This document shows positions 14,875-35,526 of a stretch of DNA of 64,000 nucleotides, piece after piece (within the stretch, counting starts at the first letter, position 1; the number at the start of each line of letters is the position of its first letter). The stretch covers positions 55,172-119,171 of the forward strand of contig CACJAV010000002.1 in assembly GCA_902591485.1 (NCBI GenBank), given 5' to 3'. The position numbers and the translations under genes are program-made. The DNA comes from an uncultured Alphaproteobacteria bacterium (lineage in GTDB: Bacteria; Pseudomonadota; Alphaproteobacteria; HIMB59; GCA-002718135). The notes below the pieces were generated by a model. That model was not told the DNA's origin. It did not search any database and saw only the letters and a list, made by a program, of their open reading frames with translations.

Positions 14875-14961
14875 GCGGCTGTGGCGGAATTGGTATACGC
14901 GCAGCGTTGAGGTCGCTGTGGGATTTATCCTGTGGAAGTTCAAGTCTTCTCAGCCGCACCA
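14875..14961 (+). tRNA. tRNA-Leu (anticodon GAG), CCA encoded
   Basis: Hand-folded. Acceptor stem GCGGCTG/CAGCCGC; anticodon stem CAGCG/CGCTG with loop TTGAGGT (anticodon GAG). A long variable arm (GGGA-TTTA-TCCT) is typical of class II tRNAs. T-arm is GGAAG-TTCAAGT-CTTCT and the 3' end is ACCA. Confidence 0.9.
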
Positions 14962-17868: not shown

Positions 17869-18759
17869 ATGAAAATAGGTATCGATCTCGGTGGGACGAA
17901 GACCGAAGGTATTTTAATTGATGACGTTGGTAAAGAACTCTCAAGAACAAGAATCAAAACTGAAAAAAACTATGATGGAACTATTCAAGGTATAATATCT
18001 ATAGTTAAAAAGTTTGAAAGTGATTTTGGTAATTCAACATCTGTTGGAATTGGAATGCCTGGAGCTGTATCTTCCGATTCAGCCTTAGTAAAGAATGCTA
18101 ATTCAATATGGTTGAATGGAAAACCTTTTAGGAAAGATTTAGAAAAAGAACTTGATCGAAAAGTTCATCTAGAAAATGATGCAAACTGTTTTGCATTATC
18201 AGAGGCAGTAGATGGGGCTGGCAAAGGTCATCCTGTGGTTTTTGGTGTTATAATTGGAACTGGTACGGGAGGAGGTATATCTATTAATCAAAAAGTATTA
18301 ACAGGAAGAAATAATATAGCTGGGGAATGGGGTCATATAGGTTTACCAAATAGATCTGATGAGGAAAAAAAATTTGTTAGCCAGTGTTATTGTCAAAAAA
18401 GTGGTTGTATGGAAACTTACGTATCTGGCCCAGGCTTTGCTAATTGTTTTAATCTTAAACATAATACAAGTTATGACTCACATGCAATTTTGAAAGAATT
18501 TGAGAATAATGAGAAGAGGGCAATAGAGGCTTTAAATAATTATGTGGATCATCTTGCAAGAGGATTATCTCTTGTTTGTAATATATTGGATCCAGATATA
18601 ATTGTCTTAGGTGGAGGGATGTCAAACATCTCATACATTTATGAAAATATAAATACCGTCCTAAAAAAATATATTTTTAGTGATACTTTTCACACAAAAG
18701 TCGTAAAAAATATTCACGGTGACTCAGGCGGAGTAAGAGGAGCTGCTTGGCTCTCTTAA
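17869..18759 (+). CDS. ROK-family sugar kinase, NagK-like (N-acetylglucosamine kinase or fructokinase)
   Basis: 296 aa containing GIDLGGTK, DANCFALSEA, GTGTGGG and GEWGH. It also has the zinc motif CYCQKSGCMETY and HGDSGGVRGAAWL, closely paralleling E. coli NagK. Confidence 0.88.
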   Translation: MKIGIDLGGTKTEGILIDDVGKELSRTRIKTEKNYDGTIQGIISIVKKFESDFGNSTSVGIGMPGAVSSDSALVKNANSIWLNGKPFRKDLEKELDRKVHLENDANCFALSEAVDGAGKGHPVVFGVIIGTGTGGGISINQKVLTGRNNIAGEWGHIGLPNRSDEEKKFVSQCYCQKSGCMETYVSGPGFANCFNLKHNTSYDSHAILKEFENNEKRAIEALNNYVDHLARGLSLVCNILDPDIIVLGGGMSNISYIYENINTVLKKYIFSDTFHTKVVKNIHGDSGGVRGAAWLS

Positions 18760-20207
18760 ATACCGGCCATTGAAATATATTTTATATTTAAGTAATCATC
18801 AAGCCCGTACCGAGAACCTTCTCTTCCAAGACCTGATTCTTTAACTCCTCCAAAAGGTATTTCTGCCTTAGTTGTCAGTCCCGTATTTACACCAACCATG
18901 CCATATTCAAGCGCCTCTGCCACTCTCCATATTCTACCTATATCTCTTGAGTAAAAATATGATGCTAAGCCATAAGGTGTATCATTCGCAAGTTTAATTA
19001 CTTCTTCATCTGTTTTAAACTTGTATAAAGGGGCAACAGGACCAAAAGTTTCTTCATATGTAATTTTTGCTTTTGTGGTAACATCTGAGAGAATTGTTGG
19101 CTGATAAAAATTACCTCCTAATGGATGCACATCTCCCCCTACTGCAATTTTTGCTCCTTGATTAACTGCATCCTTTACTTGATCATGTACTTTAATAAGA
19201 GATGGTTGATCAATGAGTGGTCCTGAGACAATACCTTCCTCCAAGCCATTTCCGACTTTGATTTTATTAACTTCCTGAATAAATTTATTTAAAAAATCAT
19301 CATAAACTTTTTCATGAACAAAAATTCTGTTGGCACAGATACAGGTCTGACCTGAATTTCTAAATTTACTTTGCATAGCTCCTGTAACTGCTTCATCAAT
19401 GTCTGCATCATCAAATACTACAAATGGTGCATGACCCCCCAATTCCATTGATACTTTTTTCACTGTAGAAGCACTTTGTTGTAAAAGAATTTTTCCAACT
19501 TCTGTAGAACCTGTAAATGATATTTTTCTTACAATTGGATTTTCTGTTAATTCTTTACCAATAGCACCTGCTGATCCTGTAATTATATTAATAACACCAT
19601 CAGGAAAGCCAGCTTCTTTTGCCAAAACTCCAAGAGCAAGTGCAGAATAAGGAGTTTGACTAGCAGGTTTTATTACAACCGTACAACCTACAGCAAGTGC
19701 AGGCGCGCATTTTCTTGTAATCATTGTGCTAGGGAAATTCCAAGGAGTAATTGCTCCTACAACACCAACTGGTTGTTTAATAACAACTATTCTTCTGTCA
19801 GGCATTGGATCAGCTATGATATCACCGTAAACCCTTTTTCCCTCTTCTGCGTAAAAATCAATATACGTTACTCCCATTAAAATTTCACCTTTAGCTTCTG
19901 CCAAAGGTTTTCCTTGCTCGACCGTCATAATTTTTGCTAAATCATCAACATTATCTTCAATTAATCTTGCCCATTTTTGGAGTATTATCGATCTTTCCTT
20001 TGCAGTTTTATCTCTCCATGCAGGAAAAGCTTTTTGAGCCTCATCAATTGCCTTAGTAGTTTCAGATGTTGAGCATTTAGGAACTTTGCCAATAATTTCA
20101 CCATTTGCGGGATTGTCTACATCAATCTTTTCACCAGAATTGCTTTCAATCCATTTACCACCGATTAGACAATTTTCTTTGAAAAGCGCATTATTTTTAA
20201 GTTCCAT
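18756..20207 (-). CDS. gabD: NAD(P)+ succinate-semialdehyde dehydrogenase (GabD-like; a DoeC-like role is possible)
   Basis: 483 aa, collinear with E. coli GabD (VDNPANGE, ITPWNFP, ELGGHAPFVV, GQTCICANR, PFGGVKESGLGREGS). Confidence 0.9.
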   Translation of the reverse strand: MELKNNALFKENCLIGGKWIESNSGEKIDVDNPANGEIIGKVPKCSTSETTKAIDEAQKAFPAWRDKTAKERSIILQKWARLIEDNVDDLAKIMTVEQGKPLAEAKGEILMGVTYIDFYAEEGKRVYGDIIADPMPDRRIVVIKQPVGVVGAITPWNFPSTMITRKCAPALAVGCTVVIKPASQTPYSALALGVLAKEAGFPDGVINIITGSAGAIGKELTENPIVRKISFTGSTEVGKILLQQSASTVKKVSMELGGHAPFVVFDDADIDEAVTGAMQSKFRNSGQTCICANRIFVHEKVYDDFLNKFIQEVNKIKVGNGLEEGIVSGPLIDQPSLIKVHDQVKDAVNQGAKIAVGGDVHPLGGNFYQPTILSDVTTKAKITYEETFGPVAPLYKFKTDEEVIKLANDTPYGLASYFYSRDIGRIWRVAEALEYGMVGVNTGLTTKAEIPFGGVKESGLGREGSRYGLDDYLNIKYISMAGI

Positions 20208-20273
20208 ATTTACTTCCTCTTATTTATAGATTTACTAGATTATTCTATTAACTTTTAATTTATAGAGGTAAAT

Positions 20274-21380
20274 ATGACAATAGTTAACTCTTGGAATGAA
20301 TGGGATCCACTAAAACATGTAATTGTGGGCACTGTTGAAAATTCAAACGTCCCTCCAATGGAGCCTGCATTAGAACCTAAAATTAGTAAAGATAGTGGTA
20401 TGGTTGGCTCACACGGACCGAGGAGTCAAGAGTCGATTGAGAAAGCAAATATTCAACTTGAAAATTTTATAAAAATTCTTGAAGCAAATAATGTTAGAGT
20501 TGATCGCCCAACTCCGATTGATTTTACAAAAGCAATTGCTACTCCTGATTGGAATAATGAAGGTCAATTTGGATCTATGCCTCCAAGAGATGTTATCTTA
20601 ACAGTTGGAAATGAGATGTTAGAAGCGCCAATGTCTTATCGTTGTCGCTGGTTTGAGTATCTTGCATACCGACCTCTACTTGAAAGATATTATGATGAAG
20701 ACCCAAATATGCGCTGGGAATCAGCCCCTAAACCTCGCTTAACTGCAGAAAGTTATAAAAAAAATTATTTACCAGAAGGTATTACTGAAGAAGAAAGATA
20801 TAAAAAAATTGAAGATAGAGATATGATCTTGACAGAGCAAGAGCCTCTTTTTGATGCTGCAGAAGTACTGCGTTTTGGAAAAGATTTATTCTATCACAAC
20901 AATTTTACATCAAATTTAAAGGGATTAAATTGGTTAAAAAGACATTTTCCAAAACATCGTGTTCATCAAATTAATTTACCTGGAGATTTAATTCCAACCC
21001 ACATTGATGCATGTTTTACACCAATTAAACCAGGTTTAATTATTATTAATCCAAATAGAAAAATATCAAATGAACAAAGAAAAATTTTTGATGATAATAA
21101 ATGGGAAATTCATGAGGCCGCTCCATCAATCCATAATTCTCCACCACCGATGTGTTACTCATCAATTTGGCTATCTATGAATGTATTAATTTTAAACCCC
21201 AAAACAATTTGTGTTGAAGCATCAGAAGAAAAAATGATTAAGCAAATGGAAAGTTTTGGAATGGATGTTATTCCTGTTCCTTTTAGAGATGCCTATGCTT
21301 TTGGCGGTAGTCTTCATTGTGCAACGACTGATGTTTATAGAGAAGGTGAATGTGAAGATTATTTTCCTAATCAACCATGA
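20274..21380 (+). CDS. AGAT/StrB1-type amidinotransferase
   Basis: 368 aa, collinear with L-arginine:glycine amidinotransferase (SWNEWDPL..VIVG, MPPRD, EAPMSYRCRWFEY, EPLFDAAE, PTHIDACF, GGSLHCATTD). The Asp/His/Cys catalytic positions appear retained. Confidence 0.88.
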   Translation: MTIVNSWNEWDPLKHVIVGTVENSNVPPMEPALEPKISKDSGMVGSHGPRSQESIEKANIQLENFIKILEANNVRVDRPTPIDFTKAIATPDWNNEGQFGSMPPRDVILTVGNEMLEAPMSYRCRWFEYLAYRPLLERYYDEDPNMRWESAPKPRLTAESYKKNYLPEGITEEERYKKIEDRDMILTEQEPLFDAAEVLRFGKDLFYHNNFTSNLKGLNWLKRHFPKHRVHQINLPGDLIPTHIDACFTPIKPGLIIINPNRKISNEQRKIFDDNKWEIHEAAPSIHNSPPPMCYSSIWLSMNVLILNPKTICVEASEEKMIKQMESFGMDVIPVPFRDAYAFGGSLHCATTDVYREGECEDYFPNQP

Positions 21381-22129
21381 ATAAATTTACACAGCATGAT
21401 TTAACTGCAGACATTATTAAAACGAATAATCCAAGAATAGGACTAATAGCTTTATCAACAGATTTTACTATTGAACAAGATTATAGAAATGTCTGTCACT
21501 CAATCCCTGTTGATATTTTTGTTAATCGTATACCTTTTGAAAATCCATTAAATCATGAAAATTATTTGAAAATGGCAAATCATATTAGTGAGGTTGCATC
21601 ACAAATTTTACCATCGCAGGAAGTAGATATTATTGCATATGGATGTACATCTGGAACAATTGCTATTGGCTCAGATAGGATAAAAAAAGAGATCAACAAA
21701 ACTAAACCTAAGGCCAAAGTTACAACTCCAATAACAGCAGCATTGAAAGCTTTTAATAATTTAGGTTTAAAAAATATTGCAGTTCTAACTCCTTATCCAA
21801 AAGATGTAAATGTAACTGTTTATAATTATTTAATTGATAATAACATCAATATTGAGTCTTTTAGCTCATTTAATTTAGAATATGATTCTGAAATTGCACA
21901 AGTAAGTTTAGCAAGTTTGGAAAAAGAAATTAAAAAAATAGACCTCAGTAATGTTGACGGTTTGTTTGTTTCCTGCACTGCTCTTAAAATTGTAGATGTA
22001 TTGGACCGAGTTGAAAGGTCTCAAAATACTATAGTAATATCAAGTAATCAGGCTATTATATGGGACTGCTTAAGGTCAGTTGGTATTGACTCAAAAATAA
22101 TAGGCTATGGTAAATTATTTCTGAGCTGA
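21377..22129 (+). CDS. EutA-like Asp/Glu-racemase-superfamily protein (maleate isomerase/arylmalonate decarboxylase-like)
   Basis: 250 aa with an ATGA overlap onto the upstream gene. It has two Cys motifs (YGCTSG and VSCTAL) typical of this fold, and lies directly upstream of eutB/eutC-like genes. Confidence 0.75.
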   Translation: MNKFTQHDLTADIIKTNNPRIGLIALSTDFTIEQDYRNVCHSIPVDIFVNRIPFENPLNHENYLKMANHISEVASQILPSQEVDIIAYGCTSGTIAIGSDRIKKEINKTKPKAKVTTPITAALKAFNNLGLKNIAVLTPYPKDVNVTVYNYLIDNNINIESFSSFNLEYDSEIAQVSLASLEKEIKKIDLSNVDGLFVSCTALKIVDVLDRVERSQNTIVISSNQAIIWDCLRSVGIDSKIIGYGKLFLS

Positions 22130-22164
22130 AATATGGAATTTGCAAATGAGGTATAATAAAAAAA

Positions 22165-23115
22165 TTGATTAATTTAGAAAGAATTAAAAAAGCACATGAA
22201 GCTATTTCTCCCTATATAAATAGGACTCCATTAATATTATCAAATTATTTATCTAAGGATAGAATTGTTAAGCTAAAGTTAGAGTCATTGCAAATTACCA
22301 ACTCCTTTAAATTACGAGGTGCTACAAATAAATTATTGTCATTAGATAATGAGCAAAAACAAAAAGGTGTAATAGCTGTATCAACAGGCAATCATGGTAA
22401 GGGCGTTGCTTACGCTGCAAGTGTTCTTGGAATTAAATCAACAATTTATATGTCTTCAATGGTTCCTCAATATCGTAAAGAAGCAATAGAAGCATTAGGT
22501 GCTAAAGTTGAAATTATTGGAAATAATAGTGATGAGGCTGACTTGTATGCAAAAAAACTCGCTAAAGAAAAAAATATCACTTTAATCCATCCTTTTGATG
22601 ATGAAGAGGTAATTGCAGGTCAAGGAACTGTGGGTTTAGAAATGTTAGAAGACTTTCCTGAGGTAGATACTGTTATAATTCCTACTTCTGGCGGTGGATT
22701 AATTGGAGGTATTGCTTTAGCCATTAAATTACAAAAACCATCTGTAAAAATAATTGCTGTTTCAATGGAAAGAGGACCTTCCATGTATGAAAGTTTAAAA
22801 AATGGTAAACCAACAGATGTTGAAGAATTAGAAACTTTGGCTGATTGCTTGGGTGGAAGCATAGGTTTAGATAATCAATATACTTTTAAAATAGCTCAAG
22901 ATGTGATTGATGATTTTGTCCTAGTAAGTGAAAATAAAATTGCTGAAGGTATAAAATTTAATTTTATTGAACATAAAATTGTAACAGAAGGGGCTGCTGC
23001 TACAGGTGTTATGGTAGTGAAAGATAATATGTCTGATAAAATTGGTAAAAATATTATTAGTTTAATATGTGGTGGAAATATTGATGCTGAACTTTTTAAT
23101 AAAATAATTTCATGA
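22165..23115 (+). CDS. EutB-like PLP-dependent threonine/serine dehydratase family protein
   Basis: 316 aa with a TTG start. It has the PLP-lysine motif NSFKLRGA, STGNHGKG and the glycine loop TSGGGLIGG. Confidence 0.85.
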   Translation: MINLERIKKAHEAISPYINRTPLILSNYLSKDRIVKLKLESLQITNSFKLRGATNKLLSLDNEQKQKGVIAVSTGNHGKGVAYAASVLGIKSTIYMSSMVPQYRKEAIEALGAKVEIIGNNSDEADLYAKKLAKEKNITLIHPFDDEEVIAGQGTVGLEMLEDFPEVDTVIIPTSGGGLIGGIALAIKLQKPSVKIIAVSMERGPSMYESLKNGKPTDVEELETLADCLGGSIGLDNQYTFKIAQDVIDDFVLVSENKIAEGIKFNFIEHKIVTEGAAATGVMVVKDNMSDKIGKNIISLICGGNIDAELFNKIIS

Positions 23116-24095
23116 CACTTATACTCAATTCAAATGAAATAAAGCATTGTGTACAATTTAATAAAGATCTTATTCCTATAATCGAAGATGCATTTAAAAG
23201 TTTATCACTGGGAAAAACAGTTATGCCACCAATATTAAGAGTTGATATAGAAAAATATCATGGTGAGTCAGATGTAAAGGCAGCTTATGTTGAAGGTTTA
23301 GATAGTTTTGCAGTAAAGGTTGCTTCAGGATTTTTTAATAATTCAAAATTAGGTTTGCCTTCTAGTAATGGTCTAATGATTCTTTTAGACTCTCAAACAG
23401 GAATTATCAAATCTGTACTTTTAGATAAAGGATATTTAACTGATGTGAGAACCGCTATTGCGGGTGCAATTGCTTCTAAATATTTATCTAATCCAGAATC
23501 TTCTACAGTTGCAATAATTGGAGCTGGTATACAAGCGCGTATGCAACTTGAGGCTCTTTCTTTAGTTAGGGACATAAAAAATGTAAAAGTTTGGTCACGG
23601 GATATTAATAAGGCTAATGAATACATACAAACTTTAAAAAAAATTTATGATTTTAATTTTCAAGCATTTGATAATACTAGTGACCTAGTCAAAGATGCCG
23701 ATATTTTAATCACAACTACTCCAAGTAAAAATCCTCTTATTAAATTTGCTTCCTTACCTAAAGGTATCCATATTACGGCAATGGGATCTGATGCAGAGGA
23801 AAAAAATGAGTTAGATCCAGAAATAATTAAAAATTGTGATATTTATGTTCCAGATAATCAGGCTCAAACAACAATTTTAGGAGAGCTAAATCACGCTATT
23901 AAAAAAAATCTTATAAAAAAGGAAACATTATTTTATGATTTAGGAAAAATTATTTTAAATCCAGAACTTGGAAGAAAAAGTAATAACGACATTACTGTGG
24001 CTGACTTAACTGGAACTGGAGTTCAAGATACTGCGATTGCCCGTTACACTTACTCAATTGCTAAAAATAAAAATCTAGGAATGAATGTAGAATAG
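23112..24095 (+). CDS. EutC-like ornithine cyclodeaminase/mu-crystallin family protein
   Basis: 327 aa with an ATGA overlap. Its Rossmann motif IIGAGIQARMQLEAL and overall layout are typical of the OCD/mu-crystallin family. Confidence 0.85.
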   Translation: MTLILNSNEIKHCVQFNKDLIPIIEDAFKSLSLGKTVMPPILRVDIEKYHGESDVKAAYVEGLDSFAVKVASGFFNNSKLGLPSSNGLMILLDSQTGIIKSVLLDKGYLTDVRTAIAGAIASKYLSNPESSTVAIIGAGIQARMQLEALSLVRDIKNVKVWSRDINKANEYIQTLKKIYDFNFQAFDNTSDLVKDADILITTTPSKNPLIKFASLPKGIHITAMGSDAEEKNELDPEIIKNCDIYVPDNQAQTTILGELNHAIKKNLIKKETLFYDLGKIILNPELGRKSNNDITVADLTGTGVQDTAIARYTYSIAKNKNLGMNVE

Positions 24096-24126
24096 GTATA
24101 GATCGTATTTTAGTAATAAAAAAATT

Positions 24127-25569
24127 ATGAATTCAAGTATTGTAGAAAAAACTGCGTCTTATTTTAGGGGGAAAGGTGTCATTCTTCCAACAATAGCAGA
24201 ATTGAAAAATCCTAATTTAATTAGTGAAGAAATTAAAAATAAAGTTTTAACTCTAGACAAAGATGCAATGGATCCAGCTAATTTGTTTAGAGTGCACTGG
24301 TTTAATCAAAGAGATCATAGTAATTTTTTAGATGTCCCAGAGCATATTGTTTTACCTAGTGAATTTACAGGTGTTGATGCAAAAATTATTGTCAATCTAG
24401 GTCGATATTTTCCACTAATTACAGCTCATAAAGTATTAGCTGCATATGGATGCTTGCTTCCACGAATTTTAAATGGTTCATTTGATTATTCAAAACATAA
24501 AGCCGTATGGCCATCAACTGGTAATTATTGTCGAGGAGGTGTGGCAATTTCAAAAATACTTGGATTAAAAAGTATTGCTATTTTACCTGAAGGCATGAGT
24601 CAGGAAAGATTTAATTGGCTAGAAAAATGGGTGGAAGATAAAAATGATATAATTAAAACAAAAGGTACTGAAAGCAATGTTAAAGAAATTTATGATGCAT
24701 GCAACGAGCTAGAAAAAAATAAAAATAATGACATTATTAATCAATTTAATGAATATTATAATTATGCAACTCATCGAGCTATTACAGGTTCATCCTTTGA
24801 AAAATCTTTTTTAAAGGTAAAAGGAAATACAAATTTACAAGCTAGGTTTTATGTTTCAGCGTCTGGTTCAAGTGGAACACTTGCAGCCGGGGATTATCTA
24901 AAAGAAAATCTCAATACAAAAATAGCAGTTGTTGAAGCAATTGAATGCCCAACTCTTCTTTATAATGGTTATGGAGAGCATAATATCCAAGGTATTGGAG
25001 ATAAGCATGTGCCCTTAATTCATAATGTCATGAATTCAGATTTTGTAGTTGGCGTATCAGATGAGGCTACAAATAATTTAAATCTATTGTTTAATACTAA
25101 TGAAGGAAAAAAATATTTAGAAAGTAGAAAAGGATTTGAAAAAGATTTTGTAAATAGATTACCCGAATTTGGGTTTTCTTCAATTGCTAATATTATTGCT
25201 TCTATAAAATTAGCTAAAAAAATGAAGTTATCAAAAAACGATGCTATTATAACAGTAGCAACTGATGGTGCTGATTTATATGAAACAGAGCTAGCTAAAA
25301 CTAAAAAACAATTTAACAAAATTTATGATGAGGTAACTTGTGCAGAAATTTTTGCTAAAAATTTTGAAGCAATAACTGTCGATCATACTTTAGAATTAAG
25401 CCAAATTGATAAAGAGAGAATATTTAATTTAGGTTATTATACATGGGTTGAACAACAAGGAACTAGTATAGAAGAATTTGAAAGTAGAAGAAATCAATCA
25501 TTCTGGGATAAGCATTACAAAGATATGATTTCACTTGATCCGAAAATTAAAGAGTTTAATTCTCTATAG
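24127..25569 (+). CDS. PLP-dependent enzyme, tryptophan-synthase-beta-like fold (type II), specific function unknown
   Basis: 480 aa. It has a candidate PLP lysine (TAHKVLAAY), STGNYCRGG (Asn-loop) and SASGSSGTLAAG (phosphate loop). It is about 150 aa longer than cysteine synthases. Confidence 0.7.
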   Translation: MNSSIVEKTASYFRGKGVILPTIAELKNPNLISEEIKNKVLTLDKDAMDPANLFRVHWFNQRDHSNFLDVPEHIVLPSEFTGVDAKIIVNLGRYFPLITAHKVLAAYGCLLPRILNGSFDYSKHKAVWPSTGNYCRGGVAISKILGLKSIAILPEGMSQERFNWLEKWVEDKNDIIKTKGTESNVKEIYDACNELEKNKNNDIINQFNEYYNYATHRAITGSSFEKSFLKVKGNTNLQARFYVSASGSSGTLAAGDYLKENLNTKIAVVEAIECPTLLYNGYGEHNIQGIGDKHVPLIHNVMNSDFVVGVSDEATNNLNLLFNTNEGKKYLESRKGFEKDFVNRLPEFGFSSIANIIASIKLAKKMKLSKNDAIITVATDGADLYETELAKTKKQFNKIYDEVTCAEIFAKNFEAITVDHTLELSQIDKERIFNLGYYTWVEQQGTSIEEFESRRNQSFWDKHYKDMISLDPKIKEFNSL

Positions 25570-25573
25570 TTAA

Positions 25574-26731
25574 ATGAAAACACAAGTACTTCACAATCAG
25601 TTGGTTGAGTGGAGACATGATTTGCACATGCATCCCCAAATAAGTTTTGAAGAAGAATATGCTTCTAATAAAGTGGCCACTTTGCTCAAAGATTTTGGGG
25701 TAGAAGTACATCAAGGAATTGCTAAAACTGGAGTAGTTGGTGTTTTAAAAAAAGGAAGTAGTAATAAAAGTATAGGTATTAGAGCCGATATGGACGCTTT
25801 ACCAATAAATGAAATAAATACTTTTTCTTATAAATCTAAGATTGAAAATAGAATGCATGCTTGTGGTCATGATGGACATACAACTATGTTATTAGGTGCT
25901 GCTAAATATTTAGCAGAACAAGGAAATTTTGATGGCACTATTTATTTTATCTTTCAACCAGATGAAGAAAATACCCTTGGGGCCAAAACAATGATTGATG
26001 AGGGTTTGTTTACTAATTTTTCAATAGATGAAGTTTATGGAATGCATAATATACCTGGAATGGAATTAGGAACATTCGGAACAAGAAAAGGAGGCATTAC
26101 TACTAGTGAAAATTTATTTGAAATTTTAATTAAAGGTAAGGGAGGTCATGCAGCTTTACCTCATATGTCAAAAGATACAATTACAATTGGTAGTCAGATA
26201 ATATTAGCTTTACAAACAATTGTTTCACGTAAATTAGATCCGGTAGCAGCTGGAGTTGTTTCTGTGACTGAGTTTATTACTGATGGAAAAAAAAATGTTT
26301 TGCCTGGTAATGGTTTGATCAAAGGAGATGCGAGAGCATTTTCTCAAGATACAAACACAATGATTGAAAAAAATATGAGACAACTTGTTGAAGGTATCTG
26401 TAATTCTTTTGGAGTTTCTGCTGAAGTAAAATATGAAACAACTTGTCCAATTACTTTTAATCAGCCAGAACAATCAGATGCAGCCACAAAAGCTGCAATC
26501 ACCTTATTAGGTGAAGATAAATGTAATGGTGACATTGATCCAAGACCTTTTTCAGAGGATTTTTCAATTATGTCAGAAAATACTCCTGGATGTTTTGTAT
26601 TAATGGGTAATGGAACCTCAGGTTCGTATGGAAGGCCATTACATTCAGCAGATTATGATTTTAATGACGAGTTATTAGTTAAAGGCTCTTCTTATTGGGT
26701 AGAGCTTGCTGAACAACAATTGAAAATATAA
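25574..26731 (+). CDS. M20D-family amidohydrolase (hippurate hydrolase/N-acyl-amino-acid deacylase-like)
   Basis: 385 aa containing GIRADMDALP, MHACGHDGH and FQPDEE, the metal-ligand motifs of the M20D family. Confidence 0.88.
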   Translation: MKTQVLHNQLVEWRHDLHMHPQISFEEEYASNKVATLLKDFGVEVHQGIAKTGVVGVLKKGSSNKSIGIRADMDALPINEINTFSYKSKIENRMHACGHDGHTTMLLGAAKYLAEQGNFDGTIYFIFQPDEENTLGAKTMIDEGLFTNFSIDEVYGMHNIPGMELGTFGTRKGGITTSENLFEILIKGKGGHAALPHMSKDTITIGSQIILALQTIVSRKLDPVAAGVVSVTEFITDGKKNVLPGNGLIKGDARAFSQDTNTMIEKNMRQLVEGICNSFGVSAEVKYETTCPITFNQPEQSDAATKAAITLLGEDKCNGDIDPRPFSEDFSIMSENTPGCFVLMGNGTSGSYGRPLHSADYDFNDELLVKGSSYWVELAEQQLKI

Positions 26732-26751
26732 ATTTTTTATGAATATTCGAG

Positions 26752-27900
26752 ATGTTTAAAAAAAATCTTGAAAAATTAAAGCAAGATCTTAACAAGAATA
26801 ATATTGATTTAGCTGTAATCACTGATGATGACTCTATTTATTATTTCACAGGTTACTTTGATTTTCTACATATGTCTTTTGGAAGACCAACTATTTTATT
26901 AGTTCCAAAAGATTCAGATACAGTTTTAATTACGCCTCTGATTGATGCACATTTGGTAAAAAAAAACTGTCCTGCAGATAAAATAATCACATGGAACGAT
27001 GGTGTTGATAATGAATGGAGAGAAGAACTGCCAAAGTATTTTAAAAAAAATACAAATATAGCAATTGAAAAATTTAAGATTAGCACTTTAGTACTAGATT
27101 ACATATCATCTTTAGATGAACAAAGGATATTTAAAAATATTACTCCAATTTTAGATTTAATAAGAATGGTTAAAACTCAAGATGAGCTAAAAATTGCCAA
27201 GTCCGCTGGCAAAGTCGCAGAAGCTATGATGTATGCTGGAAAAAATGCAATTGGACACAATGTTCCTGAATATGAAGTAGCTTTAGCAACTGCTCATGCA
27301 GGAACAAGAAAAGCTGCTGAAATATTAGAAAATGAATTTAAAGAAAGTGATATATCTCCTCTAATTCACTTTTTGCAAATTATGGCTTCCGGAAAAGACC
27401 TGCCTAAAACTCACCACCGATCCTCAATAAAATTAATCAAGGATGGAGACCCTGTTTTTCTGTGTTTTTGTGGTATGACAAACTTTCATAAATTTAAACT
27501 TGGTTTTGATAGAACATTTTGGCTAAAAGAAATTCGTGATAAAACGCAAATTAAAACCTACGAAACAGCTGTTCAGTCTCAAAAAGCAGCTTTAAGTGTT
27601 TTAGGTCCAGGTGTGAAAGCTGAAGATGTGCATGCAGCTTATGCGGACACTATTCAAAGTGCAGGCTATCCATATCCGACATTTAGATGTGGAAGAGCTA
27701 CTGGTTTTAGCATGTTAGAAGAGCCACAATTGGTAGCAGGTAATAAAACTATATTACAACCAGGTATGGTTTTTGCTGTTGATGGATCTGCAAATGAAGA
27801 AACATTTCGTGCTCAAGTTGGTGATAGTTTTATCATTACTGAAGATGGTTATGAGCAAATTACAAATTTTTCAAAAAAAATTGAGGATCTTATTATTTAA
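26752..27900 (+). CDS. M24-family creatinase-like amidino/peptide hydrolase
   Basis: 382 aa. The N-terminal creatinase/prolidase domain (YYFTGY..FGRP) and VPEYEVAL resemble Pseudomonas creatinase, and the C-terminus has the pita-bread fold. Confidence 0.8.
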   Translation: MFKKNLEKLKQDLNKNNIDLAVITDDDSIYYFTGYFDFLHMSFGRPTILLVPKDSDTVLITPLIDAHLVKKNCPADKIITWNDGVDNEWREELPKYFKKNTNIAIEKFKISTLVLDYISSLDEQRIFKNITPILDLIRMVKTQDELKIAKSAGKVAEAMMYAGKNAIGHNVPEYEVALATAHAGTRKAAEILENEFKESDISPLIHFLQIMASGKDLPKTHHRSSIKLIKDGDPVFLCFCGMTNFHKFKLGFDRTFWLKEIRDKTQIKTYETAVQSQKAALSVLGPGVKAEDVHAAYADTIQSAGYPYPTFRCGRATGFSMLEEPQLVAGNKTILQPGMVFAVDGSANEETFRAQVGDSFIITEDGYEQITNFSKKIEDLII

Positions 27901-28925
27901 TGCCAATCATTGAAGTTTATAATACTCACTGTTGTGGGGAAATAGGGGATGTTATTGTCTCAGGTGATATCAAATTAGAGGGTGAGACAATATTTGAACA
28001 ATCGAAATATTTATTTGATAATAAAAAACTGAGAAACTTTGTATTAAATGAACCAAGAGGTGGGGTGTTTAAGCATTGTAATTTAATTGTTCCTCCAAAA
28101 AATACTAAAGCATCTGCAGGTTTCATCATTATGGAGCCAGAAGACAATCCACCAATGAGTGGCTCAAACAGTATTTGTGTTGCAACCGTTTTATTAGAAA
28201 AAAAAATAATTCAATCTACTGAACCCTTAAGTGAATTTATTCTTGAAGCACCTGGAGGTTTAATTTCAATAAAAGCTGAAGTAAAAAATAATTGTGTAAA
28301 ATCAGTAGAAATAGAAAATCTTCCATCTTTTGTTGATTTATTAGATGTTAAACTTAAATCACAACATTTTGGAGAAATAACAGTCAGTACTGTATTTGGA
28401 GGCGATACATTTATAATTTGTAATGCAAAAGATTTTAACTTAACAATTGAACCTAATAATGCAAAAAAATTTGTTGAAATATCGAAGGAAATAATAAAAA
28501 TTGCAAATAATGAGTTTGGTTTTTCTCACCCGACACTACCATCTTTAAACTATATTTCATTCTGTCAATTCATTGAACCTGTTAAAATAAATAATCTAAA
28601 TCAAAAAGAAGGATGGAATACAGTTAGTATTAGACCTGGTAAATTGGATAGATCTCCATGTGGGACTGGAACATCAGCTAGGCTTGCACTTATGAGAGAA
28701 AAAAAAGAGATAGACATAGATGAAATATTTATTTCTAGATCAATTATAGGGTCTACTTTTGAAACAAAAATAAAAGAAGAATTTACTAACAATGGTAAAC
28801 AAATGATCAAACCTCTTATTAAAGGCTCAGCATTTATTACTGGTAAACAAGAACTTTATGTTTCTAAAGATGACCCTTTTCCTGAAGGTTACAGACTTAA
28901 TGATACCTGGCCAGATATAAAATAG
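27900..28925 (+). CDS. Proline racemase/4-hydroxyproline epimerase/3-hydroxyproline dehydratase superfamily protein
   Basis: 341 aa containing NEPRGG, and PMSGSNS where the family normally has MCGH. The second catalytic motif DRSPCGTGTSA is retained. Confidence 0.85.
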   Translation: MPIIEVYNTHCCGEIGDVIVSGDIKLEGETIFEQSKYLFDNKKLRNFVLNEPRGGVFKHCNLIVPPKNTKASAGFIIMEPEDNPPMSGSNSICVATVLLEKKIIQSTEPLSEFILEAPGGLISIKAEVKNNCVKSVEIENLPSFVDLLDVKLKSQHFGEITVSTVFGGDTFIICNAKDFNLTIEPNNAKKFVEISKEIIKIANNEFGFSHPTLPSLNYISFCQFIEPVKINNLNQKEGWNTVSIRPGKLDRSPCGTGTSARLALMREKKEIDIDEIFISRSIIGSTFETKIKEEFTNNGKQMIKPLIKGSAFITGKQELYVSKDDPFPEGYRLNDTWPDIK

Positions 28926-28936
28926 TAAAAAAATAT

Positions 28937-30925
28937 TTATTTGATACCATATTTATTTTTAAGTTTATTACTTCCAGCTTTAATAATTCTGTCAGCAATA
29001 ATAGATATAAAAGCTACACACAATCCAGCTACTAAGCCTCTTCCTATATCTGCTTTTGTAAGGCCTATGTAAACTTCTTGACCAAGATCTCTAGTACCTA
29101 CCAAGGCTGTAATAACCAACATAGATAAGGCAAGCATTATGGTTTGATTTATTCCTAATAAAATTTCTGGTAAAGCTAAAGGTAATTTAATTTTAAATAA
29201 TAATTGCCTTTGTGAGCATCCACTAATTAACGCTGCTTCTATAATTTGACTATTAATATTTCTTACACCATGTGCAGTATATCTAACTGCAGGAGCTAAT
29301 GCATAAAGAATAACTGCAATCATTGCTGTAAAATCACCAACACGAAAAAGCATTACAACTGGTATTAAGTAAACAAAACTTGGTAAAGTCTGAAGCGTAT
29401 CAATAAAGGCTGTTAAAATTTTATTTGCTCTATCATTTAAGCCTGCCCATACACCTAGAGGAATACCTATAATAGAAGCAATTATTACACTAGAACCGCA
29501 TAAATAAAGTGTAATCATTGCTTTTTCCCAAAGACCAGTAGTTACAATAAAAATTGACATTACAAGACACAACAATGCTAATTTAAATTTTCCAAAATAC
29601 CATCCAATAATTGTTAACACAAAAATAAACCAAGGCCATGGAATGCCTAAAAAGAATTTTTTTATTGGCAGCATAAAAAAAGTTAATAAAGTGATTTTAA
29701 AACTTTCTAGATTATCAAAATAGTTAATATTTATGTACTTAACTAATTCTTCCCAAAATAATGAAGTATTAATCATTAATTCATTTGGAAAGAATTTAAA
29801 AAAGGTGAAAAAATATCCAAGAATATAAATACTAATTATGTATAAAAGTAAAAAAATTATTTTTTTGTATTTATTATAAAAAGTCAGCTGTGTTTTTTTT
29901 GATAAAGTGGGCAAATTAGCAAAAGATTGGCTTAACCGATCCAAAGCAATTGCTATTACAACTATTGCTATCCCTGACTCTATACCTCCTCCTATATCTA
30001 ATCTTCTTAAAGATGCTAAAACATCATATCCTAATCCTCCAGCACCTATCATGGAAGCTATGATAACCATATTAAGAGACAACATTATCACTTGATTTAC
30101 ACCTATTAGTAAAGTTGGTTTTGATACAGGAATTAGAACCTTCCACATTAATTGTCTTTCTGTACAACCAGACATTAATCCGCTTTCTTTTAATTGTGGA
30201 TCAATGTTGTTTAGTGCTAACAGTGTTGTTCTTACCATTGGTGGCATTGCGTAAATTATTGTTGCAATTAATGCTGAAACTGGCCCAAAACCAAACATTA
30301 CTAATATAGGAACTAAGTAAGCAAAGACAGGAACCGTTTGCATGAGATCTAATATTGGGGTTATAATTTTTTCTAAAATTTTTGACTTATAGGACAATAT
30401 TCCAAATAGTATTCCTAGAATAACACCAATTGGAACAGCTATAATTATTGAGGATAAAGTGATCATTGAACTTTGCCATTGATCAAATACCGCCAAATAT
30501 ACTATTGAAAGTACAACCAATATAATTAGAAACTTATCTTTGGTATAAAGGGCAAGGGTAAAAAAAATACCAACAACTGAAATCCAACTTAATGGTTCTA
30601 TTATTTGTATTGCATCCTGACCTTGACCTCTTAATATTCCTTTAGAAAATATAGCTAAAACTATTTTATAAGGTTGCTCTATTATCCAAGCAAACAAACG
30701 AGTAAGATCATTAAAAGTAAATAGCAAAAAATTAGCTTCATTGATTAACCATTTAACAAATGTTGTAGTATAAATTGCAAACGGAAATGAATAATGCTTT
30801 GGATATTTGACTAACCATTTACTGTCAAAGTAGTTTGCTATTTCTTTGCCATACCAATACAAAAGCAATGTTAAGAAAGTTAAAGAAATAAAAATAATTT
30901 TATTAGATATTTTTGTTTTCCGCAT
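28937..30925 (-). CDS. proW: Glycine betaine/proline-betaine ABC transporter permease, tandem-fused double ProW
   Basis: 662 aa and highly hydrophobic. It carries two paralogous permease cores (..VPVFAYLVPILVMFGFGPVSALIATIIYAMPPMVR.. and ..LPSFVYLIPVVMLFRVGDFTAMIAVILYALAPAVR..). Confidence 0.9.
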   Translation of the reverse strand: MRKTKISNKIIFISLTFLTLLLYWYGKEIANYFDSKWLVKYPKHYSFPFAIYTTTFVKWLINEANFLLFTFNDLTRLFAWIIEQPYKIVLAIFSKGILRGQGQDAIQIIEPLSWISVVGIFFTLALYTKDKFLIILVVLSIVYLAVFDQWQSSMITLSSIIIAVPIGVILGILFGILSYKSKILEKIITPILDLMQTVPVFAYLVPILVMFGFGPVSALIATIIYAMPPMVRTTLLALNNIDPQLKESGLMSGCTERQLMWKVLIPVSKPTLLIGVNQVIMLSLNMVIIASMIGAGGLGYDVLASLRRLDIGGGIESGIAIVVIAIALDRLSQSFANLPTLSKKTQLTFYNKYKKIIFLLLYIISIYILGYFFTFFKFFPNELMINTSLFWEELVKYININYFDNLESFKITLLTFFMLPIKKFFLGIPWPWFIFVLTIIGWYFGKFKLALLCLVMSIFIVTTGLWEKAMITLYLCGSSVIIASIIGIPLGVWAGLNDRANKILTAFIDTLQTLPSFVYLIPVVMLFRVGDFTAMIAVILYALAPAVRYTAHGVRNINSQIIEAALISGCSQRQLLFKIKLPLALPEILLGINQTIMLALSMLVITALVGTRDLGQEVYIGLTKADIGRGLVAGLCVAFISIIADRIIKAGSNKLKNKYGIK

Positions 30926-30930
30926 ATTTT

Positions 30931-30960
30931 AAAATTAAAAGGGGGATGTTAATCCCCCTA
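30931..30960 (-). terminator. Intrinsic terminator/attenuator hairpin between proX and proW
   Basis: GGGGGAT (30941-30947) pairs with ATCCCCC (30952-30958) around the loop GTTA. On the transcribed (-) strand the stem is followed by TTTTAATTTT. Confidence 0.6.
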
Positions 30961-30981
30961 AAAAAAAATATTATTAATGGA

Positions 30982-31929
30982 TTATTTTATCCAATTGCCC
31001 CATCTATCTTTATTATTTGCCATCCATTCAGCTACAACAGCTTCAACTGTATTACCATCAAGATCGACAGCCGCAACAAGATTTCCCATTTCATTACTAT
31101 CAAGTGTAAATGCTTCAACAGCATCATAAGCACCTGGCCATTTATCTTTAAGCATGCTGGAAGCAACTTTCCAAATAGGACCTCTTGGTTTACCGCAATC
31201 ATAAGCAGCATTTTTATTTATACCCCATGATGGATCTGTATAACATTCAGTTGTATAAGGAGGGAATTCTACAAATTCCCCATCATATTTAGATGGTGCC
31301 CAATGCGGAGCATAAACCCAAAGCATTATTGGAGCTTTTCTTTGATAAGCAGATTCTAATTCACCAAAAAGAGCTCCATCAGTTCCTGCATGAATTACCT
31401 CCCAATCTAAACCAAGCGCTTCAACACGTTCATCATCATATCCACCCCATGTAACAGGTCCACCTAGGTATCTTCCTTTTGGAGATGTTTCAGGAGTAGA
31501 GAAAGCTTCTGCACAATCATTAAGTGCTTCCCAATTAGGTAGTCCTGGACATTTTTCTTTCATATAGGAAGGGTACCACCATTCCTCAATTGCATCCATC
31601 CCAGTAGTTCCAACGTTAACAACTCTTCCATCAGCCGTGTATTCATCAATAGCATCACGACCAGTTGTTTCCCACATTTCCATTGCTACATGAAGATCTC
31701 CTGTTTGAAGACCTGCAAATTGAGCAATATAATCGGCGGGAACAAGCTCTACGTTGTATCCAGCTTCTTTAAGAACTTCAGCCATAATATTAGTTGTAAT
31801 TAATTGACCTGTCCAATCATGCAAAGTAAGCTTAATAGGATCTTTTGATTCTACCGCATAAATATTTTGTGCAAATAGAATAAAAATAAAACTTAATAAA
31901 ATATTAAATTTATTTTTAAGAATTTTCAT
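30982..31929 (-). CDS. proX: Glycine betaine-binding periplasmic protein (OpuAC/ProX family)
   Basis: 315 aa with a signal peptide (..FAQNIYA). It contains the OpuAC-like WTGQLITTNIMAEVLKEAGY and aromatic-rich segments. A strong SD (GGGAGG) precedes the start. Confidence 0.9.
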   Translation of the reverse strand: MKILKNKFNILLSFIFILFAQNIYAVESKDPIKLTLHDWTGQLITTNIMAEVLKEAGYNVELVPADYIAQFAGLQTGDLHVAMEMWETTGRDAIDEYTADGRVVNVGTTGMDAIEEWWYPSYMKEKCPGLPNWEALNDCAEAFSTPETSPKGRYLGGPVTWGGYDDERVEALGLDWEVIHAGTDGALFGELESAYQRKAPIMLWVYAPHWAPSKYDGEFVEFPPYTTECYTDPSWGINKNAAYDCGKPRGPIWKVASSMLKDKWPGAYDAVEAFTLDSNEMGNLVAAVDLDGNTVEAVVAEWMANNKDRWGNWIK

Positions 31930-32053
31930 TTTACCTCCCAGTAATAATTTTATAAAAATACTAATTAAAACTATTGAATAAAACTACTAAAAACGAATAA
32001 TAAAATCTAATTTTTTCGAGAAATATAAAGATTATTTATTTATTTTTTAAATT

Positions 32054-33064: not shown

Positions 33065-33103
33065 CTTTATACTTTATCGTTAAATCCTTTAGTTTCCTCA
33101 TAA

Positions 33104-34108: not shown

Positions 34109-34202
34109 AATACTCCTCTTATTAAATCAAATATGAAGTGTCTATTTATAGCGCATTTACAATAAGGATTAAATGGCTAAAGATATATGTATATTTTAAA
34201 TT

Positions 34203-34219
34203 GTTTCAAAATCTGAAAC
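34203..34219. promoter_or_regulatory. Palindrome GTTTCA-N5-TGAAAC in the divergent Ldh_2/soxB intergenic region
   Basis: Perfect 6-bp inverted repeat with a 5-nt spacer, followed by TTTTTATTT, about 40 bp upstream of the sarcosine oxidase soxB ATG. Confidence 0.35.
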
Positions 34220-34259
34220 TTTTTATTTAGGTCAAAATTTTTGAAGATATAGGATTTTT

Positions 34260-35525: not shown

Positions 35526-35526
35526 T

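Follow-up and report, generated by a model that had tools for sequence, protein, structure and literature searches.

Gene content of the locus

The analysed window, a single stretch of 64,000 nucleotides, contains eight plus-strand open reading frames at 20274–28925, separated from g1 to g8 by −4, +35, −4, +31, +4, +20 and −1 nt according to the ORF list of the window. These coordinates bear out the first-pass annotation, which had described eight same-strand genes spaced −4 to +35 nt apart, and profile and structure matches agreed with its family assignments for all eight. No terminator-like site was found in the plus-strand intergenic gaps of the operon, and terminator counts showed no excess over shuffles. 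The genes and their neighbors are listed below.

18756–20207, minus strand: divergent aldehyde dehydrogenase (ALDH) of the SSADH subfamily, candidate DoeC/Ssd (Pfam Aldedh, TIGR01780)
20274–21380, plus strand: g1, AGAT-type amidinotransferase (AT), guanidino-group-modifying superfamily (PDB match)
21377–22129, plus strand: g2, EutA-like, Asp/Glu/hydantoin-racemase (Amdase) superfamily (PF17645, TIGR02990)
22165–23115, plus strand: g3, EutB-like PLP (fold type II) beta-hydroxy-amino-acid dehydratase (NF005680)
23112–24095, plus strand: g4, EutC-like, ornithine cyclodeaminase/mu-crystallin family, imine reductase or cyclodeaminase (NF006141)
24127–25569, plus strand: g5, 480-aa PALP enzyme, predicted cysteine-synthase/CBS fold with N- and C-terminal extensions (Pfam, AF2/Foldseek)
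25574–26731, plus strand: g6, M20D amidohydrolase, candidate DoeB2-type N-acetyl-diaminobutyrate deacetylase (TIGR01891)
26752–27900, plus strand: g7, pita-bread (M24) hydrolase with Creatinase_N and Peptidase_M24 domains (Pfam)
27900–28925, plus strand: g8, proline-racemase superfamily (ProR), Ser/Cys catalytic pair, 4HypE/t3HypD type (PF05544)
28937–33064, minus strand: convergent proW(double)-proX-proV betaine-type ABC importer (Pfam BPD_transp_1 twice, OpuAC, ABC_tran)
33104–34108, minus strand: Ldh2, Ldh_2 (MLD2) family dehydrogenase, candidate delta1-pyrroline-2-carboxylate (Pyr2C) reductase partner of g8 (PF02615, 289 bits)
34260–39324, plus strand: soxBDAG, heterotetrameric sarcosine-oxidase-type complex (TIGR01373)
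39367–40542, plus strand: DoeA/EutD ectoine hydrolase, last gene of the array (PDB, TIGR02993)

The product of g1 has no Pfam match and was recognized through human AGAT (1JDW/1JDX, 254 bits), with SxtG, HsvA and StrB1 also matched. Like the creatine enzymes, it is collinear with AGAT and retains the Asp/His/Cys triad along with the full catalytic and Arg/Orn-binding set (Asp170, Asp254, His303, Asp305, Arg322, Ser354/355 and Cys407 in the alignment); unlike them, it has a catabolic context and altered 300-flap residues (Asn300 to Ile, Met302 to Thr). Marine bacteria, among them Pelagibacteraceae, widely carry orthologues at 62–66% identity; AT orthologues are for the most part found apart from all the other seven operon genes. 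Members of this family lie directly next to DoeA orthologues in three loci (L016, L034 and L072), and, again reminiscent of creatine enzymes, 14 Pelagibacteraceae loci have one beside a true creatinase (540 bits to 1CHM). Its neighbor g2 scores 213 bits against TIGR02990 (cut-off 318) and shares 48–53% identity with EutA-like genes adjoining AT in other lineages, but just 33–35% with EutA of canonical clusters.

By context, g3 and g4 were shown to be orthologous to EutB and EutC of canonical ectoine clusters. Their best homologues outside the order (44–51% identity) are EutB-EutC pairs: 12 of the 14 best for g4 are paired with EutB, and 8 of these 14 loci also adjoin a DoeA/EutD homologue, together with EutA, an SSADH-like ALDH and ABC genes. 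Similarly, the best alphaproteobacterial homologues of g3 adjoin EutC and EutD. In profile searches g4 exceeded the cut-off of NF006141 'cyclodeaminase' (448.5 bits against 408) and fell below that of TIGR02992 (420 against 472), while g3 fell below that of NF005680 (386 against 413). Even model organisms have so far yielded no proof of EutABC chemistry (PMC5924519).

A Pfam PALP match at 37.5 bits, g5 conserves the PLP lysine (AHK) and the STGN and SGSSGT loops, and its AF2 model (pLDDT 94.7) points to a cysteine-synthase/CBS fold, with CysK, CBS, beta-cyanoalanine synthase and SbnA as best Foldseek matches (target TM about 0.8). The pairing of an OCD-family g4 with a CysK/SbnA-fold PLP enzyme recalls the SbnA/SbnB system of L-2,3-diaminopropionate synthesis, from which it differs by weak sequence similarity (26 and 104 bits), about 150 extra residues in g5 and a catabolic context. 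The gene is present in 87/115 genomes of the family, 1/71 of the sister family and 13/401 of the class, and its homologues elsewhere have unrelated neighbors.

The M20D enzyme g6 scores well above the TIGR01891 cut-off (314 bits against 154) and below that of NF038260 DoeB2 (308 against 550); in the PDB it matches YxeP and ILR1-like enzymes. EutE/DoeB was not found in the genome searched, which is 83% complete, so that this and the other absences reported here are soft. Judging from these results, g6 probably stands in, as a DoeB2-type enzyme, for the absent EutE/DoeB and is no alien addition. An M20-family deacylase accompanied by M24 hydrolases and EutB/EutC is reminiscent of the DoeA2/DoeB2 pair (NF038259/NF038260), and in sister lineages the same operon is headed by a pair of DoeA_2-like M24 genes; here, however, g6 stays under the DoeB2 cut-off and the window holds no DoeA_2-like gene. 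Putative Gram-positive clusters combine an abgB-type M20 gene with extra eutD copies (PMC13188858).

In g7 the five prolidase metal-ligand positions align with Cys, Gly, Arg, Asp and Gly, so that all five ligands are lost. A metallo-prolidase was therefore rejected, although prolidases are its best PDB matches. Identity to DoeA, DoeA2-like proteins and true creatinase is just 20–26%, with 52 bits to DoeA_2. A creatinase was likewise rejected, given 26% identity and the lack of His324 and Glu358 equivalents.

The last gene of the operon, g8, matches PF05544 (331 bits) and, below the cut-off of 550, NF047722 (433 bits), with 4K8L, 1TM0 and 4K7G as nearest structures; its motifs PMSGSNS and DRSPCGTG are kept in orthologues. 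This group is heterogeneous for 4HypE and t3HypD activity (Zhao et al. 2014), and its members have MLD2 or OCD Pyr2C reductases as neighbors; products of MLD2 genes adjoining proline-racemase-superfamily genes reduce Pyr2C (PMC4113996). Ldh2 adjoins the ProR gene in five related loci (L002, L113, L114, L115 and L116). In the trans-3-hydroxy-L-proline pathway (Watanabe 2014; Zhao 2014), t3HypD is joined by an OCD- or MLD2-family Pyr2C reductase. The locus resembles it in that g8 lies nearest the 4HypE/t3HypD cluster with catalytic Ser at the first position and has both Ldh_2 (MLD2) and OCD-family genes nearby, and departs from it in the Ser/Cys pair (Ser/Thr in crystallized t3HypD 4K7G), the NF047722 score and the variable presence of ProR in relatives. 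In contrast to the 4-hydroxyproline pathway, no DAAO/DHDPS genes are present.

Among the flanking genes, the ALDH exceeds the TIGR01780 SSADH cut-off (716.7 bits against 646), as do ssd/doeC genes of described clusters (PMC5924519). It occupies the same divergent position in at least 20 related loci, and its homologues at 45–53% identity are found in canonical eutBC-eutD clusters. The candidate reaction is conversion of aspartate semialdehyde to aspartate. The soxB product exceeds the TIGR01373 cut-off (596.8 bits against 529). The gene at 39367–40542 matches crystallized DoeA (6TWK/6TWJ) over its full length with 372 bits and TIGR02993 with 464 bits (cut-off 613); by sequence comparison it is a true DoeA, closing the array.

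As a separate observation, which speaks against an ectoine reading, g2, g3, DoeA and the M20 enzyme are all under curated equivalog cut-offs.

Conservation and modularity in related genomes

We compared 28 loci from relatives that probably belong to the HIMB59/AEGEAN-169 order. The prevailing order is ALDH (minus strand), AT-EutA-EutB-EutC-PALP-M20-M24-ProR, optionally Ldh2, then soxBDAG-DoeA, with soxBDAG directly after g8 or Ldh2 and with DoeA likewise last in L108, L111 and L112. The order of the eight genes is co-conserved in about 20 species-level relatives of the family, across genera at 60–90% protein identity, an arrangement that is therefore far beyond chance. The eight-gene operon, predicted from gene layout and synteny, was thus confirmed as real and conserved. 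It is not free-standing: the array, conserved and co-directional, counts 13 genes and runs on to soxBDAG and DoeA, and the operon is its front part (the upstream two-thirds). The earlier reading had set the operon against the DoeA/EutD, DoeB/EutE, DoeD and DoeC route; since DoeA ends the array and a divergent SSADH/DoeC-type gene lies upstream, DoeA and a candidate DoeC are present just outside 20274–28925. The betaine-type importer on which the operon was said to converge is real, but it is no feature of the system: it was found at this position in 0/28 related loci and is therefore an insertion peculiar to this genome.

Within the array, AT-EutA, PALP-M20-M24 and ProR are separable modules that related genomes have lost or exchanged independently of one another. 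L106, L112 and L113 lack AT-EutA or have DoeA2-like genes instead, with the remainder of the array intact. ProR, the gene missing most often, is absent in L010 and L105, and a single deletion takes out PALP through ProR in L002. In one relative the operon is interrupted by an Ehu-type (SBP_bac_3) ABC system and by a molybdopterin oxidoreductase.

Like described ectoine clusters, the array is catabolic and operon-like in organization and unites EutB and EutC orthologues, a EutA-like gene, DoeA/EutD and an SSADH-type Ssd/DoeC in one neighborhood. Unlike them, it has an M20D enzyme in place of EutE/DoeB and its DoeA lies about 10 kb off, beyond soxBDAG. Its own genes include no DABA aminotransferase (Atf/DoeD), EnuR/AsnC regulator or Ehu/Ueh/Tea transporter, and no Ehu/SBP_bac_3-type binding protein is among the annotated flanking genes of the window. 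It also has four extra conserved enzymes: the amidinotransferase, the long CysK-fold PLP enzyme, the metal-less M24 hydrolase and the proline-racemase homologue, half of the operon, which have no assigned step in described pathways. The first-pass annotation's mixture of a EutABC-like triad with enzymes foreign to the described DoeABCD/EutABCDE route is thus supported for these four, the M20D enzyme being better read as the DoeB2-type stand-in.

A putative modular catabolic island and its alternatives

The comparisons show gene identities, synteny, the contextual orthology of EutB, EutC, DoeA and ALDH, and the gain and loss of modules; the reactions and substrates of the array are all inferred. 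On balance, we somewhat favor a modular, uncharacterized catabolic island for ectoines together with guanidino and hydroxy-imino acids. Of the two options raised earlier, a variant route or a multi-substrate module for cyclic or guanidino osmolytes, the module fits the comparative data better. In its core, DoeA would open the ring of ectoine or 5-hydroxyectoine to give N-alpha-acetyl-diaminobutyrate (N-alpha-acetyl-DABA) or its 3-hydroxy form, from which the M20D enzyme, replacing the missing EutE/DoeB, would take off the acetyl group. The PLP dehydratase EutB and the imine reductase EutC, perhaps helped by EutA, would strip the beta-hydroxyl from hydroxy-DABA, and DABA would reach aspartate through a class-III aminotransferase encoded elsewhere and the divergent SSADH-type dehydrogenase. 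Among the add-ons, the amidinotransferase and its own EutA-like partner may act on guanidino or amidino groups, the former probably moving an amidino group between a guanidino solute (e.g. guanidinoacetate) and ornithine or arginine. ProR, with Ldh2 or EutC, could convert 3-hydroxyproline-type imino acids via a cyclic imine to proline, or alternatively dehydrate hydroxyectoine itself. soxBDAG, whose downstream place recalls creatine-to-sarcosine-to-glycine routes, may demethylate sarcosine-type products to glycine, and the PALP enzyme and metal-less M24 hydrolase may perform further steps. In its host, an abundant, streamlined marine alphaproteobacterium probably of the HIMB59/AEGEAN-169 order, the array would serve the consumption of nitrogen-rich solutes such as ectoine and hydroxyectoine. 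Yet AT, PALP, M24 and ProR are unneeded for ectoine degradation and well conserved, so the true substrate spectrum may differ.

Tight spacing with overlapping stops and starts, an order conserved in many species and the recurrence of an AT, EutA-like and DoeA-like trio in three lineages would also suit a linear route dedicated to one undescribed compound, e.g. an amidino or guanidino amino acid that is cyclic and hydroxylated, with the amidinotransferase as obligatory first step and M24, M20, EutABC, PALP and ProR acting in sequence. The independent loss and replacement of modules argues against eight linear steps: the rest of the array persists without AT-EutA, ProR alone can be missing, AT orthologues mostly stand apart from the other seven genes and PALP homologues elsewhere keep unrelated company. 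We consider a linear pathway unlikely.

Quite unlikely, too, is a salvage operon for hydroxyproline or other imino acids and peptides that resembles ectoine clusters by paralogy only. M24 and M20 would then be dipeptidases freeing 3- or 4-hydroxyproline, ProR would dehydrate or epimerize the latter, Pyr2C would be reduced to proline by EutC or Ldh2, and EutB would serve as dehydratase for other beta-hydroxy amino acids. The structures nearest g8, the known partnership of its type with Ldh2 and OCD-family reductases, the prolidase matches of g7 and the peptidase genes found in proline-racemase-superfamily neighborhoods (PMC4113996) are consistent with such salvage. Nevertheless, g7 is no metallo-prolidase, the nearest outside relatives of g3/g4 sit in eutD-containing clusters, a true DoeA closes the array and ProR is missing more often than any other gene.

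The AGAT-family members known to have been characterized (AGAT, StrB1, CyrA, SxtG and HsvA) are all biosynthetic. Given this and its conserved Arg/Orn-binding residues, g1 might use arginine to make a guanidino compatible solute or metabolite, for instance guanidinoacetate or a diamino acid carrying an amidino group, instead of degrading one. We regard this as very improbable: its neighbors here are hydrolases, a catabolic ALDH and a sarcosine oxidase, elsewhere it adjoins creatinase, DoeA and uptake ABC systems, the amidinotransferase reaction is freely reversible and secondary-metabolite genes are rare in streamlined genomes. Finally, adjacency of the genes with no functional link can be all but dismissed: short intergenic regions, found everywhere in streamlined genomes, would suit it, but this order is held across genera and parts of the array recur in distant lineages.

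Conservation of the eight-gene operon

The first-pass annotation had described a tightly packed operon of eight + strand genes with gaps of -4 to +35 nt, and both the arrangement and the families were reproduced: the ORF listing gives spacings of -4, +35, -4, +31, +4, +20 and -1 nt, Pfam and NCBIfam agree for g2-g8, and g1, which has no Pfam or NCBIfam match, was placed by its end-to-end alignment with human AGAT. No terminator-like site was found in any intergenic gap of the operon, a promoter/terminator scan remained at background level, and an Rfam search of the window returned no match within the operon. The features discussed here are as follows.

14875-14958, tRNA gene flanked by the ribosomal-protein block and gshA; no other Rfam match occurs in the window
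18756-20207, - strand, ALDH gene, divergent from the operon
20274-28925, + strand, operon g1-g8: AGAT-type amidinotransferase (AT, g1), EutA-like (g2), EutB-like (g3), EutC-like (g4), 480-aa PLP enzyme (PALP, g5), M20 (g6), M24 (g7) and proline-racemase homologue (ProR, g8)
28937-34108, convergent with the operon, proW (double)-proX-proV and Ldh2
39367-40542, + strand, DoeA gene

The host genome (1.43 Mb, 83% complete, GC content of about 30%) has close relatives that include AG-series single-cell genomes and 'Pelagibacterales bacterium SAG-MED31'. The order HIMB59 comprises two families (PMC10734472), and two families make up the host order in the genome collection that we searched; the host is probably a bacterium of the HIMB59/AEGEAN-169 type. 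Mapping the window proteins by tblastn onto 28 same-family loci, with our own ORF calling and clustering, gave the recurrent order gshA-gshB-bioY-ROK, ALDH on the - strand, AT-EutA-EutB-EutC-PALP-M20-M24-ProR, an optional Ldh2 on the - strand, and soxB-D-A-G-DoeA. Since this order recurs in the loci of relatives, g1-g8 form the leading part of a co-directional array of 13 genes, and the eight-gene finding is real and conserved. In the window, soxBDAG lies on the + strand beyond the importer and Ldh_2 genes (soxB scores 596.8 bits, above the cut-off of 529). Of the 115 species in the host's own family, most with incomplete genomes, 87 have the PALP gene, against 1 of 71 for the sister family and 13 of the 401 Alphaproteobacteria sampled. 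Public metagenomes yielded at least 8,000 scored candidate PALP homologues, and all 120 among the matches listed were at least 90% identical; given such numbers, the array is very frequent in publicly available metagenomes from the sea. The shares of window words in marine metatranscriptomes were small (0.06-0.11) and gave no evidence of expression.

The genes converging on the operon 3' of g8 encode, according to Pfam, a double-domain ProW, an OpuAC-type ProX, ProV and an Ldh_2-family dehydrogenase. This convergence on a betaine-type importer, noted in the first-pass annotation, is not shared by the relatives: proVWX is absent between ProR and soxB in all 28 related loci (0/28), several of which have Ldh2 there. 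Because of this absence, we regard the convergence as an insertion in the window's lineage, and the importer is ruled out as a system component. The transporter genes look recently inserted into the array.

A probable ectoine-type core

We queried 401 alphaproteobacterial genomes with g4 and examined 14 of the top-scoring loci that lie outside the order. A EutB homologue (43-51% identity) adjoins the g4 homologue in 12 of the 14, a homologue of the window's DoeA (41-46%) lies beside the pair in 8, and several add EutA (33-35%), ABC genes and an ALDH resembling SSADH (45-53%). These outside loci are canonical ectoine clusters, and their context therefore makes g3, g4, the ALDH and DoeA orthologues of EutB, EutC, Ssd/DoeC and EutD/DoeA. 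The model scores of the individual proteins are more mixed. The adjacent g3 and g4 overlap by 4 nt; EutB-like g3 reaches 386 bits with NF005680 (cut-off 413), and EutC-like g4 passes the 'cyclodeaminase' model NF006141 (448.5 against 408) and falls below TIGR02992 (420 against 472). EutA-like g2 matches PF17645 and scores 213 bits with TIGR02990 (cut-off 318), and it is only 33-35% identical to EutA of the canonical clusters versus 48-53% to EutA-like genes linked to AT. The divergent ALDH, 66 nt upstream of the operon, passes the SSADH subfamily cut-off (716.7 against 646), and its SSADH-type counterpart is syntenic in relatives, making it a candidate Ssd/DoeC. DoeA, outside g1-g8 yet inside the conserved array, aligns over its full length with the structures 6TWK/6TWJ (372 bits) and stays below the TIGR02993 cut-off (464 against 613).

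Several familiar parts of ectoine clusters were not found. No EutE/DoeB of the AstE/AspA type was detected with TIGR02994 in the window's genome (83% complete); the array instead carries the M20D amidohydrolase g6, which passes TIGR01891 (314 against 154) and scores 308 bits with the DoeB2 model, below its cut-off of 550. The array contains no diaminobutyrate aminotransferase (Atf/DoeD), and in the rest of the genome the ectB/doeD-type model picked out four class-III aminotransferases of generic type, whose top score of 178 bits falls short of the cut-off of 552. Neither an Ehu, Ueh or Tea transporter nor EnuR/AsnC regulators were found among the flanking genes annotated, and the importer next to the operon is of the OpuAC/ProVWX type. 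The content of ectoine clusters is known to vary and the EutABC chemistry has never been biochemically tested (PMC5924519). Variable content is likewise described for putative clusters of Gram-positive bacteria that have extra eutD copies and an M20 gene of the abgB type but no eutE (PMC13188858); their M20 and additional eutD genes parallel the M20/M24 content of our array. The array is best filed as a putative variant of the ectoine/hydroxyectoine catabolic cluster, in which an M20 deacylase has been built in, soxBDAG has been joined on and separable modules have been added. In the accessible literature we found no prior assignment of g1-g8 to a characterised pathway, and searches covering amidinotransferases in SAR11/Pelagibacter, DoeA2/DoeB2 and AEGEAN-169 returned no published description of the array or operon.

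Separable modules and the amidinotransferase pair

A reading of g1-g8 as a single eight-step pathway was contradicted by the relatives, in which modules are separately lost or replaced; the array is not one eight-step pathway. One locus (L106) carries photolyase-EutA-EutB-EutC-PALP followed by unrelated genes, another (L107) carries PALP without other array genes, and ProR is missing from two (L010 and L105). In L112 and L113, AT-EutA is replaced by two M24 genes whose best NCBIfam model is DoeA_2 (190 and 231 bits). An ABC system lies 3' of the M20 gene in L009, and a molybdopterin oxidoreductase with an SBP_bac_3 ABC system is found between EutC and PALP in L115. In a MAG from another sample (L002:7888-8960), one deletion fuses PALP residues 1-88 to ProR residues 67-339, so that the M20 and M24 genes are lost together with the remainder of PALP and the first part of ProR. 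Comparison of L116 (G409:C3) with window positions 18756-35525 revealed flanking ALDH, Ldh2 and soxB that are 93-96% identical and g2-g5, g7 and g8 that are only 64-78% identical, a mosaic that suggests recombinational (allelic) replacement of the operon interior between lineages.

In two relatives (L115:2854-8777 and L112:14963-17248) the array comes with a molybdopterin oxidoreductase of about 760 aa; FdhA-type genes are also reported in some ectoine clusters (PMC5924519). The sole sister-family genome with the array (L111, G520:C5) gave split tblastn matches for EutA, M20 and ProR, reflecting either frameshifts or assembly errors.

The amidinotransferase g1 aligns end to end with human AGAT (1JDW, 254 bits), and also with SxtG, HsvA and StrB1. 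In the 1JDW alignment it keeps Asp170, Asp254, His303, Asp305, Arg322, Ser354/355 and Cys407, a set that includes the Cys-His-Asp catalytic triad and the Asp residues binding the guanidino group and that does not vary among 15 homologues; the flap carries substitutions of Asn300 to Ile and Met302 to Thr. Homologues at 62-66% identity are widespread, and we clustered the gene neighbours of AT over 80 loci. Among the Pelagibacteraceae, 14 loci (those of HTCC8051 and HIMB123 among them) have AT directly beside a bona fide creatinase (M24; 540 bits to 1CHM). The order is ALDH (- strand) followed by AT-EutA-like-M24 in L016, and AT-(creatinase)-EutA-like-M24-ABC in L034 and L072; the M24 protein of these three loci is a DoeA orthologue, 50-66% identical to the window's DoeA and scoring 461-486 bits with TIGR02993. 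Linkage of AT, EutA-like and DoeA-type genes recurs in HIMB59-type bacteria, a MarineAlpha5 genome and Pelagibacteraceae, and the EutA-like protein in this linkage is a two-Cys enzyme. Judged from these recurrent AT-linked neighbourhoods, AT and EutA-like form a mobile pair repeatedly found with amidine and guanidine hydrolases. The pair is missing from some otherwise intact arrays, and we read it as a putative add-on for guanidino or amidino groups. Since g1 retains the residues that bind Arg/Orn, and AGAT catalysis can run in either direction, conversion of guanidinoacetate and ornithine to glycine and arginine can be offered as a candidate reaction, a reasonable guess and no more.

The AT-creatinase pairs occur in cultured as well as uncultured SAR11 (L064:8763-9980, L073, L037 and 11 more loci). 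We found no published description of this pairing in SAR11.

Orphan enzymes and candidate chemistry

The M24 protein g7 has Creatinase_N and M24 domains, and its best scores are to prolidases (82 bits) and creatinase 1CHM (71 bits). In alignments to 4RGZ, 4ZNG and 7N02 its five metal-ligand positions are occupied by Cys, Gly, Arg, Asp and Gly. With the five ligands gone, a prolidase or aminopeptidase P is excluded; creatinase and DoeA/DoeA2 are excluded by identities of merely 20-26% to DoeA, DoeA2-like proteins and creatinase (25-26% to the bona fide SAR11 creatinase). As predicted from these alignments, g7 is a metal-less pita-bread hydrolase in a subfamily of its own. Two metal-independent pita-bread hydrolases are known, and by analogy g7 probably acts on a C-N bond of an amidine or guanidine.

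The proline-racemase homologue g8 presents a catalytic pair of Ser (PMSGSNS) and Cys (DRSPCGTG). Its closest structures are 4K8L (367 bits) and the t3HypD 4K7G (340 bits), and it scores 433 with NF047722, below the cut-off of 550; it is assigned by sequence to the 4HypE/t3HypD cluster of the proline racemase superfamily, and may have either activity. This cluster is heterogeneous, with both 4HypE and t3HypD activities, and its genes have Pyr2C reductases of the MLD2 or OCD family next to them (PMC4113996). Among the closest relatives of the window, Ldh2 adjoins the counterpart of g8. Like 3-hydroxyproline, 5-hydroxyectoine is a cyclic imino acid with a beta-hydroxyl group, and it cannot form a PLP aldimine. 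For this reason a t3HypD-like dehydration is a candidate alternative, in which g8 would dehydrate hydroxyectoine and EutC or Ldh2 would then reduce the product.

That the AT/EutA-like/DoeA linkage encodes a new reaction of cyclic-amidine or guanidino solute catabolism in the most abundant heterotrophs of the ocean, with the Ser/Cys ProR as a PLP-independent 5-hydroxyectoine dehydratase and g5 and g7 as new steps, is a proposal that we hold to be unlikely. One candidate reaction would be an amidino or acetimidoyl transfer salvaging the nitrogen-rich group onto ornithine or glycine, with no hydrolytic release. HIMB59/AEGEAN-169 and SAR11 account for a large share of surface-ocean bacteria and live off the small, labile compounds, rich in nitrogen, that plankton release, and here one locus joins ectoine-type, guanidino-type and sarcosine-type metabolism. 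Roles for the four orphan enzymes would settle how ectoine is consumed without EutE and Atf, would test the long-unproven EutABC chemistry, and might show how creatine or guanidinoacetate enters marine nitrogen cycling.

The PLP enzyme g5 keeps the AHK (PLP lysine), STGN (Asn loop) and SGSSGT (glycine-rich phosphate loop) motifs of fold-type-II PLP enzymes of the cysteine synthase/CBS type. The models that it matches best are those of cysteine synthases, with about 76 bits against a cut-off of 351, and no equivalog cut-off is reached. The AF2 model (pLDDT 94.7) matches CysK, CBS, beta-cyanoalanine synthase and SbnA with a target TM of about 0.8, and points to beta-replacement or beta-elimination as the predicted chemistry. 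Only 297 homologous clusters at E < 1e-30 were found among 1.84 billion representatives, and the ESM Atlas returned 'PALP enzyme' and nothing more specific. Outside the order, PALP homologues have CoA-transferase, luciferase-like and PxpB genes or arginase nearby, giving no consistent lead. Among L098-L103, four loci place PALP beside two CoA-transferase subunits, a luciferase-like monooxygenase and a PxpB-like carboxyltransferase, and two place it next to an arginase-family gene. Finally, one alphaproteobacterial genome carries a 513-aa PALP paralogue (20% identical; L104:8047-9588) directly beside its homologue of the 480-aa enzyme.
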